A stretch of DNA of 64,000 nucleotides, from the NCBI RefSeq assembly GCF_003790525.1, contig NZ_CP033635.1. The stretch is one strand, 5' to 3'. Of the stretch, positions 45,874 to 47,519 are shown piece by piece. Within the stretch, counting starts at the first letter, position 1. Each line of letters opens with the position of its first letter. A model generated the notes under the pieces. The model ran no database searches. It saw only the letters and a program-made list of their open reading frames with translations, and had not been told where the DNA came from. Origin of the DNA: Escherichia coli. GTDB lineage: Bacteria; Pseudomonadota; Gammaproteobacteria; Enterobacterales; Enterobacteriaceae. The position numbers and the translations under genes were made by a program.

Positions 45874-45896
45874 CCAGAAATATAGGGGCAAATCCA
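45874..45896. mobile_element. Solo IS2 right-end-like terminus (23 bp)
   Basis: CCAGAAATATAGGGGCAAATCCA matches the IS2 right terminus except for one base; no IS2 body adjacent. Confidence 0.45.
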
Positions 45897-46205
45897 AACA
45901 GGAAAGATAGGGGGAGGGACGCGTTTCCGGCACAACCAGCGTTACGTCACCCTGCATTGTTAGTTACGAAAAGCGTACCGGAAACGCGGAACATTCTTTT
46001 AACACATTACAGGCATTCGCACACATCTTTTTTCTTCTTTGTGCTCTGAATACTGCAGTGCTCAATTAATATTAGCCACGTTTTACAGTAAGAACGGTAT
46101 CTGTTCTCTGATTCTTCCGGCGTCAACCCACAGTGTAATTATGAGGCCTGACGCTATTGTAATAATTCAGAATATAACAGCTGGTTACCGATTCAGACTC
46201 GAGGT

Positions 46206-46547
46206 TTATTTAAGAATCCATACCTGCTCGGCCTCCAGCACAGAAAACCGACACTCAAGCAGACTCGGCAGGCTGGTATGCTCCTGGCGGGCATTTTTGT
46301 ACTGATATTTTCCGGGCTGAGCACTTCTCAGGTTCAGATGCTTCATCAGCCTCCTGGCACGATAACTGCTCATCGGGATACCATTTTGAATCAGCATATC
46401 TGCCAGAGCACGCGCACCTGCGGAACCCCGACTCTGGTTCCAGACCCGGACTGTTTCGCTATACAATTTGATTCGCGCCGGATCAATCGTATTGAGCCGA
46501 TTCTGCCAGTGCCGGAACTGCTGCAATGAGCATCCAGAGCAGCGCAA
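46206..46547 (-). pseudogene. IS3-family transposase fragment (truncated)
   Basis: 113-aa ORF ...[49 protein letters not shown]... resembles the N-terminal part of IS3-family OrfB; no complete element. Confidence 0.5.
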
Positions 46548-47519
46548 AGACTGACAACCGTGTGTCGCCGCTCAGTCTGGTAACTATCGTAAACCGTTCA
46601 GTGGGAAGGATATCAAGAGCACTGTAGCTTTTTAATATCGTTTTTTGTTCCTCCAGGCGACGAACCTGCTTTTCCAGTTCATGAATACGTTGCTACTCTG
46701 ATGTGAGTGGTGATGCAGAAGACGTGGTATCCTGACGTTCCCGCCTGAGCTGACGTACCCATGCCCCCCAGTGTATAGGAACCGACATTCATAGCTTCAC
46801 TGGATTCCCGGTATGAGTAACTTTTATTAACGATAAGCCAGGCTATTTGTGCATTGGTGTTGAGGTGAGCATATCACCTCTGTTCAGGTGACCAAATTCA
46901 GTGTGCCATTTCAGTCTGTAATGCGCTGTGTGAAAAAGCTCACTGACAGTCTGAGTATTTGTCTGCAAAGGATGGAGGCCCGTCGAGGGTTCCTGAAAAC
47001 CACTGGTGCGCTGGCGAATAAGCTGACAAGAATCATCTGGCGTGTTTTGAGCGATAGTATTGATTTTAATATGCAGAAGGCCGTTGTGATGAATTAAATA
47101 AAAACAGCAAGTTATAGAAAATATTTTTAACTGAGTTTACATACACTGATGAGATAACGGCTACCGCCCCTGTAACAGTCTGAAGTTGATCTGGGTAATC
47201 AAATACCGGTGTAGTGATTAGGAAACAGGGCCCGGATAACATCATGGCGCAGGTCATTGAACCTACTAACGACGCCGGATATATGGTCGCAAACCGCATC
47301 GAACCAGTACTTGCCTCACCTGGGACGTCCATATATGCTCAACAAAAGAGAGCGTTCAGAATTCTAGCCTCACATCATACCTGAAACCGCGTCCCGACCA
47401 TAGATGATTTTATCGCCGGTTTTTTATAACAATTGTTATATTTCTGTAACAATCTTTCCGTAGACTCACGTGCATAAAAATGATTCCCCTTGAAATCGAT
47501 TTTTTGAAAGGAAACCGCA

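Follow-up and report, generated by a model that had tools for sequence, protein, structure and literature searches.

The DNA between a LysR regulator gene and phoX in a 64-kb stretch of Escherichia coli sequence (hereafter the window) is crowded with insertion sequence (IS) debris, and the question is what kind of event these fragments record. A first, sequence-only reading of the window saw in them a patchwork of IS ends and pieces of transposase genes at the junction of the chromosomal yah locus with the selC island, and took them for the probable breakpoint of a rearrangement. The patchwork is real and lies between two blocks of genes, but the chromosomal yah locus does not meet the selC island there. 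Very probably it is an inert, inherited scar of at least four ISs that joins two cargo modules, here termed A and B, within the selC island.

The selC tRNA gene is found at 56538–56632 of the window. The closest comparison is offered by E. coli TUM9803, with which the window shares 99.93% identity over 19.8 kb. In this strain the same genes lie in an island of approximately 60 kb that occupies the interval from setC to selC and continues for about 48 kb further left, as far as setC. The first 9.5 kb of the window match the interior of the TUM9803 island; approximately 20 kb of the window (9525–29477) are absent from it. The island thus does not end at the scar, which lies inside the selC island, between two cargo modules of different history.

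The scar (45766–47337) is an inert patchwork of at least four dead ISs (Table 1). No intact transposase is left in this interval, and therefore nothing there can transpose. In the RefSeq annotation of related genomes the fragments are already marked as transposase pseudogenes, and a comparison of the junction with the entire window revealed no further copies. Pfam scans of the small ORFs at 45743–45910, 47066–47332 and 47214–47384 and of a 41-aa C-terminal piece of OrfB gave nothing credible, and the counts from a promoter and terminator scan of the stretch did not exceed those in shuffled sequence. The G+C content is higher in phoX than in the yah-like block; base composition showed nothing further. 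A hairpin at 45530–45567, an inverted repeat without a T-run, follows the LysR gene. The adjoining sequence up to the scar (45533–45765) was recovered by DNA search in 225 genomes, in all cases with at least 99% identity, and thus is not a multicopy IS. The spacer between the first two IS remnants carries a 14-bp inverted repeat (45920–45933 and 45975–45988). A separate scar follows phoX at 49550–50330 and consists of an iron ABC-transporter permease fragment and an integrase-core ORF (49957–50328); related genomes annotate this region identically.

Table 1. Features of the scar, its flanks and the two modules that share it, in window coordinates.
Feature	Position	Strand	Description
Module A, 11.9 kb	35017–46898		single piece of 99.5–99.6% identity on many ColV/IncF plasmids
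LysR regulator gene	44603–45532	+	HTH_1 and LysR_substrate domains; member of module A; called yahB in the sequence-only reading
Sequence 3' of the LysR gene, opening with a hairpin	45533–45765		similarity to Citrobacter stops near 45564
Module B	45766 onward	+ (phoX)	scar, phoX, outer-membrane protein, phosphoethanolamine transferase, toward selC
IS2-group right-end remnant	45766–45896	+	IS2-like terminal repeat at ~45856–45896
Spacer, 157 bp	45897–46053		separates two IS right ends that face each other
ISEc31-like right end	46054–46186	-	terminal repeat and extreme C-terminus of OrfB; 86.7% identity to ISEc31 1124–1258
Filler, 31 bp, at internal deletion	46187–46217		ISEc31 753–1123 missing
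ISEc31-like body	46218–46860	-	77.9% identity to ISEc31 129–752
IS911-like left terminal repeat, 53 bp	46861–46913	-	90.6% identity to K-12 IS911A 1–53
Putative IS110-family 3' remnant	46914–~47337	+	final 61 codons with stop (to 47097), followed by ~240 bp of non-coding tail
phoX upstream region	47338–47519		opening of module B
phoX	47520–49499	+	Pfam PhoX, E = 6e-166

The leftmost remnant belongs to the IS2 group. The 23-mer at 45874–45896, which had been singled out for its likeness to the IS2 right end, is a genuine match with two mismatches; dinucleotide shuffles of the window gave an expectation of 0 chance matches, and the sole other match (9100–9122) lies in the window's own IS2-like copy. 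Moreover, all 20 nucleotides of 45877–45896 agree with the tip of a 1331-bp element that the annotation of E. coli SMS-3-5 gives as IS2. As in IS2, approximately 40 bp resemble the terminal repeat and terminate in CA, but in contrast to IS2 neither OrfA/OrfB coding sequence nor a partner left end is present within about 1.3 kb. Because tblastx and blastn comparisons with the IS2-like copy of the window retrieved only short, insignificant matches upstream of the terminal repeat, the sequence at 45877–45896 represents a solo end and not a copy of IS2. The IS2-like copy itself (9099–10431) looks live, and TUM9803 has a 96.8%-identical copy elsewhere, after the phosphoethanolamine transferase gene.

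The second and third elements are fused in a single remnant. The ORF at 46206–46547 (minus strand), initially recognized as an IS3-family OrfB fragment, is indeed an N-terminal piece of OrfB (NF033516, E = 3.7e-14, profile positions 108–220 of 369; Pfam HTH_21). It forms part of a larger IS3-family remnant of 860 bp (46054–46913, minus strand), which also retains a piece of OrfA (NF033516, E = 4.7e-7, positions 32–104). The OrfA of this remnant is frameshifted and its start region deleted, OrfB is reduced to its N-terminal third, and the 371 bp missing relative to ISEc31 (positions 753–1123) comprise part of the catalytic core. Judged as a functional IS3-family element, the remnant has an incomplete catalytic core and contains stops and frameshifts throughout; in the RefSeq annotation of TUM9803 it is a pseudogene. 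Its overall organization is collinear with that of ISEc31, and this extends to the right terminal repeat and to the arrangement of OrfA and OrfB (the reference was the copy annotated on E. coli plasmid NZ_CP063154.1, position 1258 being the last base of the element). With only 78–87% identity it is, however, a different relative, and its left end is replaced by an IS911-like one. This 53-bp end is 90.6% identical to IS911A of E. coli K-12, and in a commoner form of the remnant, described below, 176 bp resemble IS911 at 90.3%; yet the terminus alone is IS911-like here and the remainder of the element ISEc31-like, both names resting on only 78–90% identity to the reference sequences. The ISEc31-like body and the IS911-like end fuse at a common 9-bp motif, CTCACCTCA (46861–46869), and the flanks of the remnant show no target-site duplication, with TAC on one side and GTC on the other. 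The mismatched ends and unduplicated flanks identify the remnant as a chimera of two elements and not as a single insertion.

An Rfam scan, which had IS110-type guide RNAs among its targets, returned only a sub-threshold match to isrC (RF01387), a small RNA of Salmonella (46776–46891, minus strand; 31.2 bits versus a gathering score of 39). This match coincides in part with the 5' end of the IS3-type remnant, and the isrC family itself may have its origin in an IS3-family end. It is conceivable, though improbable, that this isrC-like 5' end, or the IS110 tail described below, is still transcribed as a small RNA.

The fourth element probably belongs to the IS110 family. The ORF at 46888–47097, described before as transposase-like, is transposase-derived only from 46914 on; its first 26 nucleotides belong to the IS3-type terminal repeat. 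Its 69 codons contain the last 61 codons of a putative IS110-family transposase, of which 37 residues match the corresponding profile (NF033542, positions 304–340 of 343, E = 3.6e-4), with 19.8 bits compared to a cut-off of 140; Pfam yielded no match for this ORF. These 37 C-terminal residues at the very end of the profile and the non-coding tail of approximately 240 bp after the stop codon are in line with an IS110-family element, whereas the N-terminal part of some 280 residues, and with it the catalytic domain, is missing. A distant DNA search of 5,426 E. coli genomes for an intact parent found only fragments. The right limit of the tail (~47335–47337) was set where independent matches in PSJ-42 and in IncF plasmids end. 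Most of the 843 plasmid matches to 46908–47519 consist of a 157-bp piece (47181–47337) with approximately 85% identity, which in one examined E. coli IncF plasmid lies beside the RepFIB/integrase region and adjoins an IS3 fragment. PSJ-42 has a 329-bp version of this piece, adjoining a broken LysR gene.

Beyond the window, the scar occurs in two contexts. Module A contains part of an ISL3 element, the yah-like cluster of carbamate kinase and FdrA genes with its xanthine permease, the LysR regulator and most of the scar. Its plasmid copy carries the same protein accessions as the window and is bounded by IS100 and IS1A. Module B is at least 99% identical in E41, GF43 and SLK172, and its gene order is kept in selC, pheV and other islands. 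In the pheV island of SLK172 it adjoins tRNA-Phe and is preceded by a truncated copy of the LysR gene of the window; in E41 and GF43 it comes after iha and remnants of an integrative-conjugative element. The left flank in the latter two departs from the window exactly at 45766, and in islands of the E41 type this flank is another transposase fragment. Modules A and B overlap in a shared segment of 1.1 kb (45766–46869). Among 5,426 complete genomes, 188 contain the LysR-side junction, 94 most of the segment 46908–47519 with the IS110 tail and the region upstream of phoX, and 64 most of the whole stretch. No single intact element and no conserved backbone aligns to the stretch, but it is contiguous, with at least 99% identity, with mobile modules that already exist elsewhere. 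The scar is therefore inherited, shared by modules with otherwise different distributions.

Three forms of the IS3 remnant can be distinguished. The plasmid form is ISEc31-like throughout, with a 63-bp stretch at the 5' end of OrfA and its own degenerate left end. In the island form, present in E41, GF43 and SLK172, the first 176 bp are IS911-like and include a 107-bp stretch that replaces the one of 63 bp. The window form, lastly, is of the plasmid type up to CTCACCTCA, a motif shared by both other forms, with the 63-bp stretch at 46798–46860, and then continues with the IS911-like end; an exact match to this chimeric junction was found in TUM9803 only among the 5,426 complete genomes. Plasmid-type alleles occur at 46352, 46363 and 46558 in the window, but at 46558 only in TUM9803. 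Over 19.8 kb the two differ at 14 single bases, and 12 of these are located within 46051–48164, an interval that looks like a local recombination hot spot. Taken together, the allele pattern and the clustering of these differences suggest that copies of the scar have exchanged sequence repeatedly by homologous recombination. Some of the window alleles in this interval are common to E41 or SLK172, others are unique. The plasmid-type IS3 remnant is also found in a chromosomal island of SMS-3-5 (NC_010498.1, 3,230,593–3,258,718), beside the sit and aerobactin genes and surrounded by a group II intron and numerous further IS fragments; the annotation shows no LysR gene within 14 kb on either side of it.

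How the two modules came to be joined can be reconstructed tentatively from these forms. An IS110-family element upstream of phoX would have been cut by an IS3-type insertion, presumably of the IS911-like element. This IS911-like element might then have recombined with an ISEc31-like one at the margin of module A, giving rise to the chimeric IS3 remnant. Recombination between two IS3 copies would also explain why the chimera lacks a target-site duplication. Most likely, the window form goes back to an island-type copy that took up a stretch of plasmid-type sequence in place of its own, in an exchange that ended at the 9-bp motif. The only likely role of the scar would be a passive one, its shared 1.1 kb providing a site for homologous recombination by which modules can be joined or swapped.

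A reverse order of events also deserves consideration, although we regard it as doubtful. The form seen in the window and TUM9803 would then be the original one, created when a plasmid-type module A and an IS911-like element that lay upstream of phoX recombined illegitimately at the 9-bp motif, and the 107-bp form would have emerged later via gene conversion against an intact IS911-like copy. Such a sequence of events is compatible with the identical outer flanks of both forms, and only in the window form is the full module A contiguous with the plasmid form. That the window and TUM9803 have the same right crossover and differ on the left would likewise fit one founding event with later exchanges. 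The 107-bp form is, however, far commoner (approximately 60 genomes against one) and already adjoins a LysR fragment in a pheV island, and 9 bp of homology is very little for two modules to be joined in the first place. We thus favor the first order, in which plasmid-type sequence took the place of part of an island-type copy.

On a wider scale, the 1.1-kb scar of dead ISs might serve as a standard linker through which modules are exchanged repeatedly between ColV/IncF virulence plasmids and tRNA-linked islands, a generalization that we consider rather improbable. If it were true, the window would capture a rare and recent plasmid-to-chromosome conversion. The yah-like catabolic block is mobile between ColV/IncF plasmids and chromosomal islands, and the variants of the scar (the 63-bp and 107-bp forms and the breakpoint at 45766) could be used as markers of module exchange in avian and extra-intestinal pathogenic E. 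coli.

The nature of the yah-like block bears directly on the proposal that the scar is a rearrangement breakpoint, which would have brought the selC island alongside the chromosomal yah genes and displaced pdeL. At first sight the arrangement invites this interpretation, as the IS fragments lie directly 3' of a yahB-like gene, with selC approximately 10 kb to the right. The block shares with the pdeL-yahB-yahC/yahD-yahJ locus of K-12 homologs of yahB, yahD, yahE, yahF, yahG and yahI in the same divergent layout, but it lacks yahC, yahJ and pdeL, has an additional xanthine permease, and sits in the selC island and on ColV/IncF plasmids instead of in the backbone. Its genes have only 69–89% nucleotide identity to K-12. 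The LysR regulator is a paralog of K-12 YahB (74% nucleotide and 85% amino acid identity), and YahE shares 53% of its amino acids with the K-12 protein, whereas in other Escherichia species YahB is conserved at 96–99% and YahE at 92–96%. The best match of the regulator in another species is from Citrobacter (88% amino acid identity). This island and plasmid LysR does not exceed 88% with any sampled species; K-12 YahB and the YahB of Citrobacter share 93–94%.

Two architectures of the yah cluster exist in Enterobacteriaceae according to a sample of 80 species. The first one has yahC and no permease and occurs in Escherichia, Kluyvera, Raoultella and others; the second, in Citrobacter, Enterobacter, Buttiauxella and others, carries the xanthine permease between yahG and yahI and has no yahC. 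The block of the window is of the second type, as in the Citrobacter loci. In the same sample pdeL follows yahB in three Escherichia loci only, and elsewhere the genes downstream of yahB vary. Neither the near-identity expected of the backbone yah locus nor the gene order pdeL-yahB-yahC beside betT is found in the window block.

The native locus was read in TUM9803 as a stand-in for the window's own genome, and its gene order there (NZ_CP135671.1, 4,410,000–4,417,000) is prpR-yahO-yahN-yahM-IS1-pdeL-yahV-betT. TUM9803 thus lacks the native yahB–yahL, a point in favor of the rearrangement, but an IS1 occupies their place and pdeL is intact at its native site. In this strain the island copy is the only yah-like cluster. 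The expectation that pdeL should follow this particular yahB consequently does not apply, the block having a Citrobacter-type architecture and pdeL still residing beside betT in TUM9803. The proposed breakpoint fails as well, since the yah-like block is itself cargo of the island and is also found on ColV/IncF plasmids, with an identical block and the same scar. Considering, moreover, that the island of TUM9803 continues far to the left of the block and that the left part of the window is island interior, we judge a breakpoint at the scar to be highly unlikely. For annotation this means that the genes upstream of the scar should not be named as the native yahB–yahI locus, and that pdeL is not missing here.

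It is scarcely credible, finally, that the patch was built in place by successive IS insertion and decay at a local, lineage-specific hot spot, as the several IS families within 1.6 kb and the live-looking IS copies elsewhere in the window might suggest, because the same fragments with the same truncation points recur at 99% identity or more in over 200 genomes and plasmids, where they occupy various islands and replicons. An inherited scar that joins modules A and B inside the selC island accounts for this distribution.

In mosaic pathogenicity islands and the cargo regions of ColV plasmids, modules are commonly joined by junctions made of IS remnants. A literature search for ColV plasmids with yahB, or for PhoX in selC genomic islands of E. 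coli, found nothing relevant to this particular scar. It resembles these mosaic regions: here, too, decayed IS fragments separate cargo modules that are common to tRNA-linked islands and IncF plasmids. The scar is a typical and ordinary example of this already known kind of junction, and it implies no new mechanism.
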